From Gemmatimonadaceae bacterium (GTDB lineage Bacteria > Gemmatimonadota > Gemmatimonadetes > Gemmatimonadales > Gemmatimonadaceae), in NCBI GenBank assembly GCA_046704805.1, contig JBJKRG010000248.1, positions 20,602 through 84,601 of the forward strand: a stretch of DNA of 64,000 bases. The letters are read 5' to 3'. Positions 10,996 to 56,870 of the stretch are shown here, in pieces; position 1 is the stretch's first letter, and each line of letters opens with the position of its first letter. The notes under the pieces were generated by a model that saw only the letters and a program-made list of their open reading frames with translations, had not been told where the DNA came from and did not search any database. The translations under genes and the position numbers were made by a program.

Positions 10996-12039
10996 GTGCC
11001 TTCCTCCCGCCTCGCGCTCGTCATCCTGTACATCGCTCTCGCCGCGCCGGCCGCGGCGCAGTCGGCTGCCGTTGCGGCGCCTCCCGCCGGCCACCGCTAC
11101 CACCTGATGCCGACCCCGAGCACCGTGGCTTGGGGCTACTACTGGTCGCAGGCCAGGCCCGTGCTCCACATCAAGTCGGGCGACGAGGTGGACGTCGGCA
11201 CGCTCATTACGTCGAGTCCCACCCGGCTTGAGCGTGCGGGGGTTGATTCGGCCGACGTGCAGCCGTCATTGCGGGACATCTTCGCGCACGTGAAGGACCG
11301 CGGACCGGGCGGCCACATTCTCACCGGGCCGATCTACGTCGAGGGCGCTGATTCCGGGGATGTGCTCGAAGTCCGCATCGAGAAGATCGACCTCGCCATT
11401 CCGTACGCCTACAATGCGTTCGGACCCCGGGGCGGGTTCCTGCCCGAGGATTTCCCCTACTCCCGCATGAAGATCATCCCGCTCGACCGGCAGCACATGG
11501 TCGCCCACTTCGCGCCCGGCATCGACATCCCGCTGCACCCGTTCTTCGGCAGCATCGGCGATGCACCGCCCGCGGCGATGGGACGGGTCAGCAGCGTACC
11601 ACCCGGCATCTATGCCGGCAATCTCGACGACAAGGACCTCGTGGCCGGTACCACCCTGTACATCCCCGTCTGGACGAAGGGGGCACTGCTCGAGATCGGC
11701 GATGGCCACGCCGGCCAGGGCAACGGGGAGGTCGACATCACGGCGATGGAGACTTCCCTCGAAGGCCGGTTCCAGATCATCGTGCGGAAGGATCTGCACG
11801 CCGAATGGCCCCGTGCCGAGACGCCGACCGACTACATCGCGATGGGAATCGACAGCAATCTCGTAACGGCTACCAAGAACGCCATCCGCGAGGCGATCGA
11901 CTTCCTCGTCACGCAGAAGGGCCTGTCGCGCGACGAGGCCTATATGCTGGTCAGTGTCTCGTCGGATGTCGACGTGACCGAACTGGTCGACGGAACGCTG
12001 GGGGTGCATGTGATGATCCCGAAGTCCATTTTCAGGTAG
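10996..12039 (+). CDS. Acetamidase/formamidase-family amidohydrolase with signal peptide
   Basis: GTG start preceded by AGGAG. LALVILYIALAAPAAAQ signal. GGHILTGPIYVEGADSGDVLEVRIEKIDL and GDGHAGQGNGEV are family hallmarks. Confidence 0.85.
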   Translation: MPSSRLALVILYIALAAPAAAQSAAVAAPPAGHRYHLMPTPSTVAWGYYWSQARPVLHIKSGDEVDVGTLITSSPTRLERAGVDSADVQPSLRDIFAHVKDRGPGGHILTGPIYVEGADSGDVLEVRIEKIDLAIPYAYNAFGPRGGFLPEDFPYSRMKIIPLDRQHMVAHFAPGIDIPLHPFFGSIGDAPPAAMGRVSSVPPGIYAGNLDDKDLVAGTTLYIPVWTKGALLEIGDGHAGQGNGEVDITAMETSLEGRFQIIVRKDLHAEWPRAETPTDYIAMGIDSNLVTATKNAIREAIDFLVTQKGLSRDEAYMLVSVSSDVDVTELVDGTLGVHVMIPKSIFR

Positions 12040-12077
12040 TCCTCGATGTCCCGAACACGTGGTTCGTCCCGGCGCGC

Positions 12078-12851
12078 ATGTCCAGTCGGCACCCGTTCCT
12101 GATTCCGCTGGTGTGGGGCACGCTCGTTTTCGGGTCCGCGCCTCGTGTCCTGGCCCAAGCGGCGGCTTCGCCGCACACGGCGAACCCTGAACGTCCCACC
12201 GTTGCGACGAATGCCGGGACGGTCGCCCCTGGATGGTTCGAGATCGAAAGCGGCGTCGAGCGCGACCGCCTCGGTCCCGGAGCGTCGAGCATCGCCACCC
12301 CCACGCTGCTGAAGTTCGGCGTTGCGCGGCGCATGCAGTTCGACATCGCGCTCACGACCGTCCGGCCACCGGCCGCCCGTCCCTGGGGGATCGGGGACGA
12401 CGCCGTCGCCCTGAAGTGGCGGCTGGCGGACGGCATGCCGTTGCTCGGCGACTTCGCAGTGCAACCGTCGATCAAATTGCCGACGGGATCGCGCCCGCGG
12501 GGTACCGGCACTGGTACCACGGACTACTCCCTGGTGGTCATCTCGAGCCATGCGCTGGGCCCGACGGCGCTCGACCTCAACCTGGGGTACACGCGCCACA
12601 GCGACGGCACCAATGCGGCGCTCTGGACGGTCTCCACCGGCACCACGATCGCCGGTCCGCTGGCACTGGCGGCGGAGATCTTCGGCTACCCGGGATTCGG
12701 CGCCGGACCGAGCGTCGGGTTTCTGTCCGGCCCAACGTGGACCGTGCATCCGTGGTTCGTCGCCGACGCCGGGTTCATCGCCAACGTGAGTGGATTGCAG
12801 CCACCAGCGCTCTACGCAGGCCTTACGTGGAACGTCGGCCGGTGGCGGTAG
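12078..12851 (+). CDS. Putative outer-membrane beta-barrel (MetA-pathway/transporter-like)
   Basis: Start at MSSRHPFLIPLVWGTLVFGSAPRVLAQA (signal peptide). Alternating hydrophobic pattern. C-terminus ends ...YAGLTWNVGRWR (aromatic terminus). Confidence 0.5.
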   Translation: MSSRHPFLIPLVWGTLVFGSAPRVLAQAAASPHTANPERPTVATNAGTVAPGWFEIESGVERDRLGPGASSIATPTLLKFGVARRMQFDIALTTVRPPAARPWGIGDDAVALKWRLADGMPLLGDFAVQPSIKLPTGSRPRGTGTGTTDYSLVVISSHALGPTALDLNLGYTRHSDGTNAALWTVSTGTTIAGPLALAAEIFGYPGFGAGPSVGFLSGPTWTVHPWFVADAGFIANVSGLQPPALYAGLTWNVGRWR

Positions 12852-12865
12852 CGTCCGGACGCCAC

Positions 12866-12893
12866 TTGACCTGGTCGCCAGGGACGGTATCTT
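12866..12893 (+). promoter_or_regulatory. Sigma-70-like promoter candidate for the aro leader
   Basis: TTGACC (12866-12871), 16-nt spacer, TATCTT (12888-12893). The leader ATG at 12901 lies 7 nt after the -10 box, so a leaderless transcript is possible. Confidence 0.35.
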
Positions 12894-12900
12894 GACGCCC

Positions 12901-12984
12901 ATGATGCGCCGTCACCTCGTCGCCTATTACTACTACCGCGCGGTCCCAGCTACGGGCCGTGGTCGGAGACGTTCGCGCGACTGA
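12901..12984 (+). CDS. Candidate Tyr-rich leader peptide (MMRRHLVAYYYYRAVPATGRGRRRSRD)
   Basis: 27-codon ORF with four consecutive Tyr codons (TAT TAC TAC TAC, 12925-12936). Sits between a promoter-like element and a terminator hairpin, directly upstream of aroF, chorismate mutase and tyrA. Confidence 0.5.
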   Translation: MMRRHLVAYYYYRAVPATGRGRRRSRD

Positions 12985-13011
12985 AGCCGCGTCAACTTCG
13001 TTCGACTCACC

Positions 13012-13049
13012 AGGAGCCCGTGGATCACCACGGGCTCCTTCTTCGTTTC
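13012..13049 (+). terminator. Intrinsic terminator / attenuator hairpin
   Basis: AGGAGCCCGTGG (13012-13023) pairs with CCACGGGCTCCT (13028-13039): 12-bp stem, 4-nt loop. Followed by TCTTCGTTTCC. Lies 28 nt before the aroF ATG. Confidence 0.6.
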
Positions 13050-13077
13050 CGCACCACTGCACCCATCCGGAGAGCGC

Positions 13078-14133
13078 ATGATCATCGTCACCACGCCCGG
13101 CGCCACCGAGGCTCAACTCGACGGGATTCGCGAACGCGTCGAAGGTCTCGGCCTGCGCACCCATCTGTCGCGCGGCGAACGGCGCACGATCATCGGCTGC
13201 ATCGGGGACGAGTCCCTGCTTCGCGAGGCCGGCCTGCTGTCCCTGCCGGGCGTCGAGTCGGTGACACCCATCCTCAAACCGTACAAGCTGGTGTCGCGTG
13301 AATTCGTGCCGGGCGGAACCGTCGTCCGCTTCGGCGACGCGGCGGGCATCGCCATCGGCGAGCGCGACTTCACCGTCATCGCGGGGCCCTGTTCGGTGGA
13401 GGGTCGGGACATGCTGCACGAAACGGCCCGGTTCGTGCGCGCCGCCGGAGCGGCCATGCTTCGCGGCGGTGCCTTCAAGCCGCGAACCTCTCCCTACGCC
13501 TTCCAGGGACTCGGTGCCGCAGCGCTCCGCATGCTCGCCGAGGTCCGTTCGAGTACCGGCATCCCCGTCGTCAGCGAGGTCATGGACACCCGGCAGGTGG
13601 AGTTGGTGGCGGAGCACGTCGACATGCTCCAGGTGGGCGCCCGCAACATGCAGAACTTCGCTCTCCTTGCCGAGGTCGGCAGGACGCAGCGTCCCGTACT
13701 GCTCAAACGGGGCATGTCCGCAACGGTCGCCGAGCTCCTGATGGCGGCGGAATACATCATGGCCCAGGGTAATCACGACGTGGTCCTCTGCGAACGGGGG
13801 ATTCGCACGTTCGAGCCATCGACGCGGAACACCCTCGACATTGCGGCGATCCCGGTCCTCAAGCGAGAGACGCATCTCCCGGTGATCGTCGATCCGAGTC
13901 ACGCCGGTGGCCGGGCCGACCTCGTCGCGCCCCTGGCGCTGGCTGCGGTCGCGGCCGGGGCGGACGGCCTCATCGTGGAAGTACATCCGAAACCCGATCG
14001 CGCGCTGTCCGACGGTGATCAGTCGCTGACCTTCGATGCCTTCCGCGATCTCATGATGCGGCTGCGACCCTTTGCCGAGGCCGCCGGTCGTACGCTTACC
14101 TTTTCCGTCGTCGAATCGGAGGTCGCGGCATGA
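13078..14133 (+). CDS. aroF: 3-deoxy-7-phosphoheptulonate (DAHP) synthase, type I-beta with N-terminal regulatory domain
   Basis: 351 aa. ACT/ferredoxin-like N-domain followed by [44 protein letters not shown] and [10 protein letters not shown]. Confidence 0.9.
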
Positions 14134-14432
14134 GCACGCCGACCGATGATCACAACGAGGGACCGCCCGATCTCGCGGACCTGCGCGCCGAAATTGAGCG
14201 TATCGACCGCGACCTGATTCGTCACATCGCGCGCCGCGTCGAACTGGCGCGCCAGGTAGGCGTCGTCAAGCATGCCGCCGGCCTTCCCGCCCTCGACCCG
14301 GCTCGCGAAGCCTCCGTGATTCGCCGGGTCAGCGAGATCGCACGTGAGGAAGGTGCCCCCGAGGAAGACGTGCGGTACCTCTTCTGGCACATCATCGGCA
14401 TGTCGCGCCGAGCGCAGTTGACCGAGGAGTAG
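14130..14432 (+). CDS. Chorismate mutase (AroQ class)
   Basis: 100 aa. LADLRAEIERIDRDLIRHIARRVELARQVGVVK is a typical CM_2 helix. ATGA overlap with aroF. Confidence 0.85.
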   Translation: MSTPTDDHNEGPPDLADLRAEIERIDRDLIRHIARRVELARQVGVVKHAAGLPALDPAREASVIRRVSEIAREEGAPEEDVRYLFWHIIGMSRRAQLTEE

Positions 14433-14434
14433 CC

Positions 14435-15313
14435 ATGACGACCGCAAGGCAACACGTCGGGATCGTCGGCCTCGGTTTGATGGGCGGATCACTTGCCCGC
14501 GATCTGCTCCGCCGCGGGATCGAGGTCACCGCCTACGACACCGGTTTTGCTGATATCGTCGATGGCAGGGACGGGGAATCCGAAGTCGCGCGCATTCGTC
14601 GTGCGCCCGATCTGGCCACAGTGGCGGATGCACCTATCGTCGTCATCGCCGTGCCCGTTCAGACGGCCGTCGACGTCCTCAGCCGCCTGGCCCCCCATCT
14701 CGGCCCCGCCCATCTGGTGATGGACGTCGGAAGCACGAAACGCCACATCGTGGCGAGCGCCGAAGCGCTCGGGCTCGGCGGCCGCTTCGTCGGGTGCCAC
14801 CCGTTGGCCGGCGACCACCGTTCGGGTTGGGCCGCGTCGCGCGCCGGGCTCTTCGACGGAGTTCCGGTCTTTCTCTGTCCCCCGACCGGCGTCGGCAGCG
14901 ACGCCCTGCCACAAGCCGCGGCCTTCTGGGCGGCCCTCGGCGCGTGCCCGGAGGTCATCGACGCCGACACACATGACCGGCGCATGGCGTGGGTGAGTCA
15001 CCTGCCTCACATGCTCAGTGCCGCGCTCTCGCTGGCCCTCGGGGAGGCCGGGCTCACAGTCGACGCGCTCGGTCCCGGTGGCCGCGGCATGACGCGGCTC
15101 GCCGCCAGCTCCCCCGATCTCTGGACCCAGATTGCCGGACAGAATCGTCCTTTCCTGATCGGCACGCTCGACGCCTTCGAGGACCACCTCCGCCACCTGC
15201 GTCGAGCGATCGAGGCCGGTGATCATGCGGATCTCGCGCGGTACCTGGCGGCGGCCGCCGTGTGGACCGGGGCTCGACCGGCGCCGGGTGCCCGTCAGGT
15301 CGACCGGATGTAG
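14435..15313 (+). CDS. tyrA: Prephenate dehydrogenase
   Basis: 292 aa. N-terminal Rossmann GIVGLGLMGGSLARDL, then DVGSTK and HPLAG motifs. Starts 2 nt after the chorismate mutase stop. Confidence 0.85.
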   Translation: MTTARQHVGIVGLGLMGGSLARDLLRRGIEVTAYDTGFADIVDGRDGESEVARIRRAPDLATVADAPIVVIAVPVQTAVDVLSRLAPHLGPAHLVMDVGSTKRHIVASAEALGLGGRFVGCHPLAGDHRSGWAASRAGLFDGVPVFLCPPTGVGSDALPQAAAFWAALGACPEVIDADTHDRRMAWVSHLPHMLSAALSLALGEAGLTVDALGPGGRGMTRLAASSPDLWTQIAGQNRPFLIGTLDAFEDHLRHLRRAIEAGDHADLARYLAAAAVWTGARPAPGARQVDRM

Positions 15314-16041
15314 TGGCAACCGGCTTCCTGAGCGCGAATGGCAGCGAAGATTCCCGACGGCTGCAGCTGCACGCCCGGCACCAGGTGGCGGCGAAGCTCA
15401 TCGAATACGGCGTCTGCCTTCTCGTGGGAGCGTTTCGCGAGAATACTGGCCATACCGTGCGTGGCGAGTGCGCAGGCAAGCACCACCGCGCCTCGTTTCT
15501 CTAGAGCCTCCAAGGTGAAATCGGCGTCCTGCTCGTCGCCGGGCGCCGCCTTCCAGAACGGGTTGCGCCGTGCCCACCGTTCCGTTCCGGGCTCCTTCAC
15601 CTTGGTGAATGCTCCGAGGGCGTACCGGTCCCAGATCGCGTCGTCGAACGCCATCGGGATGGCCGAGTGACGGACGACGATCACGGCGTTCACGTCGGCA
15701 TCCCGTACACCGTACATGCTCTCGAAGCCCTGCATGAACGTGTACGCATTGAAGATTGCCGTGCCATCCTCGATTTCGGGGGAGTCGAAGACGGCGCGAT
15801 ACCGGCCGGTCACCCTGGCAGTCCAGGTGTCGTCGAATTTCAGCGGCGGAAGCGGTGGTACCGGCGGAAGCTTCGGTGGCACCTCGATGGTGGACGATGC
15901 CGCGACCGATCCCGTACCCCCCGCGGTCGCGCCGCCACTGACGCAGGCGGAGGCCGTGAGTGCCGCCGCTGCGGTCGCGAGCTGGCCGAGGAACGCACGC
16001 CGGGGAGTGGAAGGCGAGTCGAGCGGGAAAGCGCTGGGCAT
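15295..16041 (-). CDS. Tat-signal secreted protein, function unknown (possibly DsrE-like fold)
   Basis: Start at MPSAFPLDSPSTPRRAFLGQLATAAAALTASA (twin-arginine motif). Its 3' end overlaps the tyrA 3' end by 19 nt (convergent). Confidence 0.5.
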   Translation of the reverse strand: MPSAFPLDSPSTPRRAFLGQLATAAAALTASACVSGGATAGGTGSVAASSTIEVPPKLPPVPPLPPLKFDDTWTARVTGRYRAVFDSPEIEDGTAIFNAYTFMQGFESMYGVRDADVNAVIVVRHSAIPMAFDDAIWDRYALGAFTKVKEPGTERWARRNPFWKAAPGDEQDADFTLEALEKRGAVVLACALATHGMASILAKRSHEKADAVFDELRRHLVPGVQLQPSGIFAAIRAQEAGCHYIRST

Positions 16042-16213
16042 GGCGAGCTCTGCTGAGGAAGGTGGCCGGGGCGAGACGCGGCGGATGGCCGGCCGTCGCC
16101 GTCGCCCGTCGTCCATCAACCACGGTGGAACGCGGCGACCAGGAGCGGCACGCCCGCCCGCGCTTCTCCCAACGCACGACGCCCTGCGATCGTGCTGCAG
16201 GGCGTGTTCGGAG

Positions 16214-16285
16214 AGGCGCGGGCGGGAATCGAACCCGCGTATAGCGGTTTTGCAGACCGCCGCCTTACCACTTGGCTACCGCGCC
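16214..16285 (-). tRNA. tRNA-Cys (GCA)
   Basis: Reverse complement reads GGCGCGGTAGCCAAGTGGTAAGGCGGCGGTCTGCAAAACCGCTATACGCGGGTTCGATTCCCGCCCGCGCCT. 7-bp acceptor stem, CTGCAAA anticodon loop, GTTCGATTC T-loop. CCA is not encoded. Confidence 0.9.
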
Positions 16286-55752: not shown

Positions 55753-56870
55753 CGTTGGCGCCGCTCCGCAATGAGCGGCGTCAGGATGTCATGCAGGCGC
55801 CGCAGCTGCGTGCCGGGGTCGCAGAGCGCCCGCGCTCGCGCGGGACCGGCAGCACCCATTGCCCGTCGCCGCTCGGGATTCTCGATCAGCATCCGGAGCG
55901 CGTCGGCAAGCTGGCGTGGCTGCTGTGGGGGCACGAGTATCCCGCAGGCCTGGCCGCCCAGGATTTCCGTCGGTCCACCCATGTCGGTGGCCACGACCGG
56001 CAACCCTGCATACAACGCCTCGATGATCGCCACGCCGAACGGTTCCGCCTGTGCATTCGGCTGGCAGAAGATGTCCGCACCGGCGAGCACGGTTCCGATG
56101 TCGTCCCGCTCTCCCAGGAACCGCACACGCGACCTCACCCCGCGCGATACTACCAGGGTCCGGAGGCCCGCCTCGTAGGTACGTTCCGACGCGCGCTGCG
56201 CTCCGCCGACGACCCAGCACTCCCAGTGTGGAAGGTCGCCCAGGAATCCCAGCGCGTGCATCAGCAGTGCATGACCCTTCCAGCGCTCGAGCCGTCCTGC
56301 CTGGACGATGACTGCCGTTTCCGGTGCCAGACCGAACTCTCGCCGCATTGCCTCCCGGCGCTCCGCTACTGCGGGAGGAGACACCGGACAGTGAATCAGC
56401 TGGGCACGCGCCCGCGTGAACACGGCTTCGACCGTCTGCCCCGTGAACGCGCTGTTGTACACGACCAGATCGGGCGTGCGGAGTCTCGCCAACCGCTCGG
56501 TCCAGTGGGTACCCCGGACGGCATCGTGCAGCCAGAATCCCACCGGGTAGCCGGCGCGACGGATCGCCGGCCCGAACAGGGAATACGACCAGGCCGAGTG
56601 GCACATCACGAAGTCCGGCCGGCTTCGCTTGAGCAGCGCCCTCAGTGCGCGCCGGGCGCGGAGGATCGTCGCCGGGCGGCTCGCGCGCACCGCCCCTAGG
56701 AGATGGACCGGAACATCACAGGCCCGCAACTCGCGGGCCAGTCGTCCATCGAAGCACAGGGCGAATTCCGGTTCCAGATCGGGGAATGCCGCCCGTGCCC
56801 GTGCCAGCACGACGAGCATCGACTCGACCCCGCCGAACAGATTGCCGCTGTACACGTGGAGGAGCCTCAT
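55749..56870 (-). CDS. Glycosyltransferase family 4
   Basis: MRLLHVYSGNLFGGVESML...; CQPNAQAEPFGVAIIEALYAGLPVV EX7E motif. Confidence 0.8.
   Translation of the reverse strand: MRLLHVYSGNLFGGVESMLVVLARARAAFPDLEPEFALCFDGRLARELRACDVPVHLLGAVRASRPATILRARRALRALLKRSRPDFVMCHSAWSYSLFGPAIRRAGYPVGFWLHDAVRGTHWTERLARLRTPDLVVYNSAFTGQTVEAVFTRARAQLIHCPVSPPAVAERREAMRREFGLAPETAVIVQAGRLERWKGHALLMHALGFLGDLPHWECWVVGGAQRASERTYEAGLRTLVVSRGVRSRVRFLGERDDIGTVLAGADIFCQPNAQAEPFGVAIIEALYAGLPVVATDMGGPTEILGGQACGILVPPQQPRQLADALRMLIENPERRRAMGAAGPARARALCDPGTQLRRLHDILTPLIAERRQR

Follow-up and report, generated by a model that had tools for sequence, protein, structure and literature searches.

The aroF operon in a 64,000-nucleotide stretch of contig JBJKRG010000248.1 from a Gemmatimonadaceae bacterium (hereafter the window) is very probably preceded by a ribosome-mediated (leader-peptide) transcription attenuator, in which the charging of Tyr-tRNA would set the transcription of aroF, a chorismate mutase (CM) gene and tyrA. 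This reading comes from sequence analysis. It draws on a short open reading frame (ORF) with four tyrosine codons in a row, on an intrinsic terminator located just upstream of aroF, on the recurrence of comparable arrangements in most of 80 related loci and on the covariation of both the terminator and an alternative helix that would prevent its formation.

A tyrosine-codon leader and a terminator precede aroF

The aromatic codons of the leader ORF are Tyr only, without any Phe, and four of them stand in a row (Table 1). Such a (TAY)x4 run is found once in the 64-kb window, both strands counted, for about 0.002 expected per strand. A consensus scan returned the promoter ahead of the ORF (TTGACC-16-TATCTT) as the sole promoter-like site within positions 12000 to 16000, with a shuffle mean of 0.2. 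On the other side of the ORF, the terminator displays a 12-bp stem with nine G-C pairs followed by the tail TCTTCGTTTC, whose end is located 28 nt 5' of the aroF ATG (13078). The frames of aroF, CM and tyrA overlap or abut, and the operon appears to end at 15313. In a scan of the whole window, one strong hairpin-plus-U terminator was detected on each strand, the one on the plus strand being that of the aroF leader and the other being located at 56721-56739 on the minus strand (GGCCCGC GAGTT GCGGGCC). With one strong example per strand in 64 kb, canonical intrinsic terminators are apparently rare in this genome.

The leader RNA (12925-13050) folds as three hairpins, with a z-score of -4.1 compared with shuffles. 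Region 1 starts 3 nt past the last Tyr codon and forms with part of region 2 a hairpin of 8 bp (12939-12946 with 12954-12961, named the 1:2 hairpin). Region 2 partly repeats the sequence of the terminator 3' arm, and an alternative pairing is available between CUACGGGC (12950-12957) and GCCCGUGG (13016-13023). This antiterminator (the 2:3 helix) has 8 bp including one G-U pair and engages the 5' arm of the terminator. The energies calculated in the window are -25.5 kcal/mol for the terminator, -13.4 kcal/mol for the 1:2 hairpin and -11.6 kcal/mol for the 2:3 helix alone. When region 1 was masked, to mimic a ribosome whose A site holds the last Tyr codon, and the RNA was made to end at 13027, the minimum-energy fold was the antiterminator. 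In this masked fold, the antiterminator is continuous with the hairpin 12962-13006, the 2:3 helix stacking on the hairpin base, and the modelling suggests that this middle hairpin belongs to the antiterminator form.

A preliminary description of this DNA had proposed a candidate tyrosine attenuator. The promoter, the 27-codon ORF with its Tyr run and the terminator that it reported are all present, and Pfam and NCBIfam confirm the three enzymes of the path from 3-deoxy-D-arabino-heptulosonate 7-phosphate (DAHP) to prephenate and tyrosine that it had assigned to the operon. The antiterminator pairing that it had found by hand stands with its 8 bp and single G-U pair, and covaries across relatives. 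It had also drawn a small hairpin GGUCC/GGGCC (12942-12946 with 12954-12958); this hairpin exists, but its true extent is 8 bp. Folding of the leader thus favours an attenuator and, together with the conservation described below, is consistent with the tyrosine-responsive element that had been suggested.

Table 1. Coordinates of the leader elements and operon genes in the window
Feature	Coordinates	Strand	Description
Promoter -35 box	12866-12871	+	TTGACC; sigma-70-type promoter, consensus scan; 16-nt spacer to the -10 box
Promoter -10 box	12888-12893	+	TATCTT
Leader ORF	12901-12984	+	ATG 12901, TGA 12982-12984; 27 codons plus stop, encodes MMRRHLVAYYYYRAVPATGRGRRRSRD
Putative regulatory codons	12925-12936	+	UAU UAC UAC UAC, four Tyr in a row
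Region 1	12939-12946	+	CGCGGUCC; partner 12954-12961 (1:2 hairpin)
Region 2	12950-12962	+	CUACGGGCCGUGG; pairs with region 1 or, via 12950-12957, with the terminator 5' arm
Middle hairpin B	12962-13006	+	Leader stop codon 12982-12984 in the loop; from folding
Terminator	13012-13049	+	Region 3 13012-13023, 4-nt loop, region 4 13028-13039, U-rich tail UCUUCGUUUC
Shine-Dalgarno-like motif	13069-13074	+	GGAGAG, 5' of aroF; outside all alternative structures; read from the sequence
aroF	13078-14133	+	Type I-beta DAHP synthase with FXD domain (Pfam, NCBIfam)
Chorismate mutase gene	14130-14432	+	CM_2, AroQ-type (Pfam, NCBIfam)
tyrA	14435-15313	+	Prephenate dehydrogenase (Pfam, NCBIfam)

The element recurs at the head of aromatic operons in Gemmatimonadota

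The comparison set was composed of 80 Gemmatimonadota aroF loci with AroF identities of 66-79%. The AroF relatives place the window in this phylum, nearest to Longimicrobiaceae. Leaders were searched with a heuristic based on a short ORF that ends 40-200 nt 5' of aroF and contains a cluster of Tyr, Phe or Trp codons. This heuristic was passed by 69 of the 80 loci, about 67 being convincing, with an ORF end mostly located 70-125 nt 5' of aroF. Across relatives, the leader ORFs span 19-31 codons and abound in Tyr, Phe and Trp (e.g. MSRTIAYAYYYYFATPTPGRSWRRTR, MASPRTYHVFFYYYAHLQTGRGWRRMRD and MTTHATSYLAYFTSFWGYSPGSR), and a clear hairpin-plus-U terminator accompanies them in no fewer than 56 of the 69 leader loci. 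A covariance model (R1) built from an alignment (A1) of 29 relatives gave exactly one full-length match in the window, on the plus strand, and one full-length match each in 62 of the 80 loci, 34 of the 62 being outside the building set. Every full-length match marks the head of an aromatic operon, and the other matches are only those of the terminator, a palindrome, to the reverse strand. The gene that precedes the leader in the window has no conserved counterpart at any of the 80 loci, so that the element belongs with aroF.

An aromatic-rich ORF and a terminator are therefore found 5' of aroF in most of the loci compared, as anticipated in the preliminary description. This description had considered the run of Tyr codons as the regulatory signal. 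The window copy indeed uses Tyr only, but the family signal is more broadly aromatic, mostly Tyr and not strictly four Tyr.

Twelve of the 80 loci are listed as failing the leader heuristic. In three of them (L008, L010 and L061) aroF is inside an operon, another one (L037) is truncated by the contig end with the element still there, the leader of L060 is diverged and poor in aromatic codons, and no convincing leader was found in L043, L065, L066, L072 and L079. In L003 (974-1109), the promoter, a model-homologous RNA (42 bits) and the terminator are kept and the ORF is reduced to ATG-ATA-GAG-TAA, without any aromatic codon; this leader may have decayed or may terminate constitutively. Finally, L033 (about 250-330, aroF at 494) contains a compact form with a predicted leaderless ORF (MDPRTLGCRYYWRAP...), in which only a few nucleotides separate Tyr-Tyr-Trp codons from the terminator stem (GGGCUCCC/GGGGGCCC) and the reading frame continues through this stem. 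In this form, a ribosome that stalls could by itself keep the terminator from forming, no distinct antiterminator being needed.

The terminator and the antiterminator covary

In the 29-sequence alignment, 92% of the cells of the terminator are paired and six pairs have changed on both sides, with none of 500 shuffles as high. The antiterminator (12950-12957 with 13016-13023) is paired at 86% in the same sequences and its covariation score was reached by one of 500 shuffles. A model-guided alignment of 53 sequences was also examined, the antiterminator pairs not being part of the covariance model that guided it. The antiterminator is again paired at 86%, with 26 double-sided changes versus 9.0 +/- 2.6 (0/500 shuffles), and slid controls reach at most 48% paired.

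The same relation is visible at the level of individual loci. The leader segment typically located about 10-15 nt past the last aromatic codon repeats part of the terminator 3' arm and is, as a result, complementary to the 5' arm. Between lineages with terminator stems of the GGCUCCCGG and GGCCCGUG classes, this leader segment differs correspondingly. The pairing of leader segments with their own terminator arm has a mean energy of -18.8 kcal/mol, versus -15.2 +/- 0.39 kcal/mol when the partners are reassigned (0/2000 permutations as low). Same-class leader/terminator pairs are better than cross-class ones by about 4 kcal/mol, the fit tracking the terminator class.

Applied to the 29 leaders, RNAalifold returns the terminator and a 5-bp hairpin (columns 65-70 with 82-86). 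The alternative pairings are absent from this prediction, as a switch would lead one to expect. Hairpin B is not kept as a defined structure in the other loci.

The leader ORF has coding features and a probable leaderless start

Aromatic codons account for 20.2% of the leader ORFs in frame versus 3.3% and 5.7% in the two other frames. Tyr, Phe and Trp interchange between leaders, and both synonymous codons occur. In the 69 leaders, the rare codons ending in U are overused, with UAU representing 40% of the Tyr codons and UUU 53% of the Phe codons, versus 10% and 17% in aroF. The operon of the window uses UAC for all its six Tyr codons, and the first Tyr codon of its leader (12925-12927) is UAU. 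In the 3' half of the ORF (TGRGWRRTRD and variants), which overlaps the RNA pairing, it is the nucleotides that are conserved, as seen in replacements such as AGA (Arg) by AGU (Ser).

A promoter search anchored on the leader ATG (TTGACA-like with at least 5/6 matches, a spacer of 16-18 nt and NANNNT) was positive in 54 of the 69 loci. The distance from the -10 box to the ATG is 6-7 nt in 41 of these 54 loci, and 7 nt in the window. Besides, a Shine-Dalgarno-like motif precedes the leader ATG in 3 of the 69 loci and is absent in the window. An ATG situated 6-7 nt past the -10 box and devoid of a Shine-Dalgarno sequence suggests that the leader mRNA is probably leaderless, and the ORF would be translated from this mRNA with a start predicted from promoter geometry.

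The putative regulatory codons track operon content

The candidate regulatory codons track the operon that they precede: Tyr predominates before aroF-CM-tyrA, and aroF-pheA is preceded by Phe alone or by a mixture. Leaders of aroF-CM-tyrA operons (29 loci) contain a mean of 4.2 Tyr, 1.3 Phe and 0.4 Trp, versus 2.4 Tyr, 2.0 Phe and 0.9 Trp when aroF is present without CM or tyrA (22 loci; Mann-Whitney p = 1e-4, the kinship of loci being ignored). Before aroF-pheA, where pheA encodes fused prephenate dehydratase (PDT) and CM_1 domains (L074:1818-4080 and L057:140-2406), the leader MIATRRFFAFGFFFGFPPGGRSRAGARS includes seven Phe and no Tyr. When aroF is followed by a prephenate dehydratase gene (L009, L035 and the L052 group), the leaders mix Phe, Tyr and Trp. 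In the pheA-aroF-CM-tyrA operon of L008 (1630-1815), the leader MTTQSLHRSVGNGAARFFGYRAYSYFYPVERPRILA and the terminator are located before pheA and not before aroF, with three Phe and four Tyr codons and an R1 score of 24.5 bits. The Tyr-only leader of the window matches its operon, which ends in tyrA.

Gemmatimonas-type loci (L025, L036, L044, L045, L047, L063, L064, L073 and L077) have a divergent prephenate dehydratase gene upstream of the leader and aroF-CM, on the minus strand and about 250-900 nt from the leader. One intergenic region is thus common to two aromatic transcription units.

Proposed mechanism

Building on the observed sequence features, on how they are conserved and on the covarying terminator and antiterminator, we infer a transcription start, translation of the ORF, ribosome stalling and a regulatory outcome that would take place as follows. 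Transcription would start at, or 1 nt 5' of, the leader AUG (12901), and a ribosome would load on this 5'-terminal AUG without any Shine-Dalgarno sequence. With ample Tyr-tRNA, the ribosome would reach the UGA at 12982. Region 2 (12950-12962) would then be under the ribosome or re-paired with region 1 (12939-12946), and the 12-bp terminator (13012-13039) with its U tail would form and stop the RNA polymerase before aroF. With little Tyr-tRNA, the ribosome would stall at the Tyr codons (12925-12936), its leading edge covering region 1. The free region 2 would pair with the terminator 5' arm (13016-13023) as soon as the latter is made, stacking on hairpin B, and the blocked terminator would let the operon be transcribed.

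Several observations weigh against this mechanism. The case for an attenuator is wholly comparative. Judged on the window by itself, the antiterminator duplex does not stand out from shuffles (-14.9 versus -13.0 +/- 2.4 kcal/mol, a value reached by 17 of 100 shuffles), so that its support comes from the comparison with other genomes, and the helix is short, with 8 bp and -11.6 kcal/mol versus -25.5 kcal/mol for the terminator. The 1:2 hairpin (12939-12946/12954-12961) is placed where a ribosome stalled on the Tyr codons could melt it, is 72% paired in the 29 relatives and shows zero covariation; it is thus compatible with the model but not demonstrated. In addition, the stop codon lies about 20 nt past region 2, so that a terminating ribosome would not simply sit on region 2 as in Escherichia coli trp, and the model requires the 1:2 hairpin to re-form behind the ribosome. 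Because the loci share ancestry, they do not count as independent samples in the codon-versus-operon statistics. Lastly, the model leaves unexplained the Arg-rich tail of the peptide, the GCGC just 5' of the stop codon and the GGAGNCGUA motif.

The 3' end of the leader (12958-12984 in the window, and the equivalent in relatives) carries GGAGNCGUA, then GCGC before the stop codon in 40 of 67 loci. Arg is among the last three residues in 55 of the 69 leaders, and RD-stop is present in 19. Two helices were tested as an explanation for this conserved end and neither accounts for its conservation. A long-range helix between the first Tyr codons (UACGNCUAU) and GGAGNCGUA was rejected, being paired at 68% and matched by 115 of 500 shuffles. 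The stop-codon hairpin GCGCG-ACUGA-CGCGC was likewise dropped as a family feature, being found in 36 of 67 loci without any energy advantage over shuffles (mean z = 0.04). Although Arg is the commonest leader residue (16.6%), it was also rejected as the sensed amino acid, since a GC content of 67% yields Arg richness and the operon has no link with arginine. The Arg-rich tail and the GCGC before the stop codon might add a programmed pause at termination.

Alternative explanations

The leader RNA could act as a translation-independent switch that binds a protein, a tRNA or a small ligand in the style of TRAP, PyrR, T-box or riboswitch systems, the ORF being incidental. The 3' half of the ORF is indeed kept at the nucleotide rather than the peptide level, the AGA (Arg) to AGU (Ser) change preserving the RNA, and L003 has retained its promoter, homologous RNA (42 bits) and terminator despite an ORF reduced to MIE-stop. 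We nevertheless consider such a switch improbable: no Rfam family matches within the leader at E <= 10, the aromatic region is kept as an amino-acid class rather than as a sequence, with an enrichment of about fourfold to sixfold in one frame only, the leader ATG is held at the predicted transcription start, and codon identity tracks tyrA or pheA. A ligand-binding RNA predicts none of these patterns.

In another reading, sensing or effect would reside in the leader peptide and not in simple stalling by codon starvation, either through a TnaC-like arrest in response to a free aromatic amino acid in the ribosome tunnel or through a function in trans, as documented for peTrpL. The Arg-rich C-terminal tail and a GxGxxR motif recur across lineages, and RNA pairing explains both only partly. 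However, the tail overlaps region 2 and GC-rich RNA, a high Arg content is expected from a sequence with 67% GC, and the tail sequence varies between terminator classes in step with the RNA. As the aromatic cluster is the sole peptide feature shared family-wide, a role of the peptide as such seems quite improbable. A fortuitous arrangement, in which the hairpin would terminate the upstream gene next to a random short ORF, is hardly credible. Short ORFs are common in GC-rich DNA and the antiterminator is not significant in the window alone, but the upstream gene is found in 0 of 80 loci versus at least 62 for the element, a promoter separates this gene from the hairpin, and chance predicts only about 0.002 Tyr runs per strand.

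Neighbouring genes

On the 5' side of the leader, an ORF of the acetamidase/formamidase family (10996-12039, plus strand) overlaps the 5' end of a 348-codon ORF (11805-12851, plus strand). The latter has no Pfam or NCBIfam match, and the start of the gene preceding the leader is uncertain. The 3' side of the operon is occupied by large minus-strand ORFs without family matches and by a minus-strand tRNA-Cys (GCA) gene at 16213-16285, convergent with the aroF operon and the sole tRNA gene of the window.

Novelty and significance

A cmscan of positions 11000-16000 against Rfam 15 (E <= 10) returned four weak matches far under the gathering scores, none of them in 12866-13077 and none of them to Phe_leader, Trp_leader, His_leader, Thr_leader, Leu_leader or T-box. 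A literature search found no paper on leader-peptide attenuation in Gemmatimonadetes and no Tyr-codon leader before tyrA or aroF in the papers that it covered. An earlier mention is possible in the survey of attenuation across phyla by Lopatovskaya et al. 2010 (Mol Biol 44:128), cited in PMC4833913. The preliminary description had not recognised the four-Tyr leader as a described one, and neither Rfam 15 nor the literature search yielded any. With no Rfam 15 match and no description retrieved, the family appears to be undescribed but of a known kind.

In textbooks, tyrosine control relies on TyrR repressors or T-boxes. A leader reading Tyr codons would extend classical attenuation to tyrosine, the understanding of attenuation itself being unchanged. 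To our knowledge, aroR of Corynebacterium glutamicum is the sole aromatic aroF leader tested so far, and it gave no Tyr response. Within the attenuation model, we are inclined to think, with less assurance than for attenuation as such, that the element of the window is the first Tyr-specific leader-peptide attenuator and that it belongs to an ancient, leaderless and Gemmatimonadota-wide family, whose sensed residue would have been re-coded several times (Tyr, Tyr plus Phe plus Trp, or Phe only) with the gain or loss of tyrA or pheA. If true, this family would offer a natural series for the evolution of attenuator specificity, and the relation between leader codon mix and branch enzyme would cleanly document, by comparison, how regulatory specificity changes while the RNA scaffold stays fixed. 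The family also provides an annotatable cis-regulatory element for Gemmatimonadota, a phylum that is common in soil and has seen hardly any experimental genetics, together with a promoter model (TTGACA, 17-18 nt spacer, TAnnnT and a predicted leaderless start).

Comparison with known leader-peptide systems

As pointed out in the preliminary description, leader peptides of aro genes are known in a few lineages, such as aroR of C. glutamicum and uORFC-13-1 of Acholeplasma. The former is the closest functional analogue, a likeness drawn from its literature description and not from sequence. As summarised in PMC11802643, aroR carries Phe-Tyr-Phe codons upstream of aroF and its response is to Phe, with none to Tyr (Neshat et al. 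2014). It is a short ORF with aromatic codons before a DAHP synthase operon, in which stalling raises read-through. Corynebacterial leader peptides are commonly leaderless, and all these features resemble those proposed here. The differences are the phylum, the four Tyr without Phe of the window leader and the operon that ends in tyrA. The Acholeplasma uORFC-13-1 motif is a candidate uORF-plus-terminator found exclusively before aroF, with comparative support only (PMC8632094). It is AT-rich, has a U run coding Phe, comes from another phylum and shows no sign of homology with the present family.

Leaderless leader peptides have been reported in Deinococcus deserti (14 predicted) and Streptomyces lividans, with starts mapped by RNA-seq (PMC4007540, PMC8079986). 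In those species, and by prediction in the window, transcription begins right at the AUG of a small regulatory ORF, and a hairpin with a U tract separates this ORF from amino-acid biosynthesis genes. In the window the start is placed from promoter geometry alone. The main texts of these two papers mention neither tyrosine nor aroF.

Regarding its architecture, the element resembles the E. coli pheL-pheA and trpL-trpEDCBA systems, with an ORF in which cognate codons are clustered and, as proposed here, mutually exclusive 1:2, 2:3 and 3:4 pairings, the last one being the intrinsic terminator. In contrast to pheL and trpL, the leader is here predicted to be leaderless and devoid of a Shine-Dalgarno sequence, would sense Tyr and has one more hairpin, which separates region 2 from region 3. 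The position of the stop codon also differs, between regions 1 and 2 in E. coli and past region 2 in the window. What would distinguish this putative attenuator is that it is specific for Tyr, is predicted to start leaderless, has its stop codon past region 2 and includes the additional hairpin.

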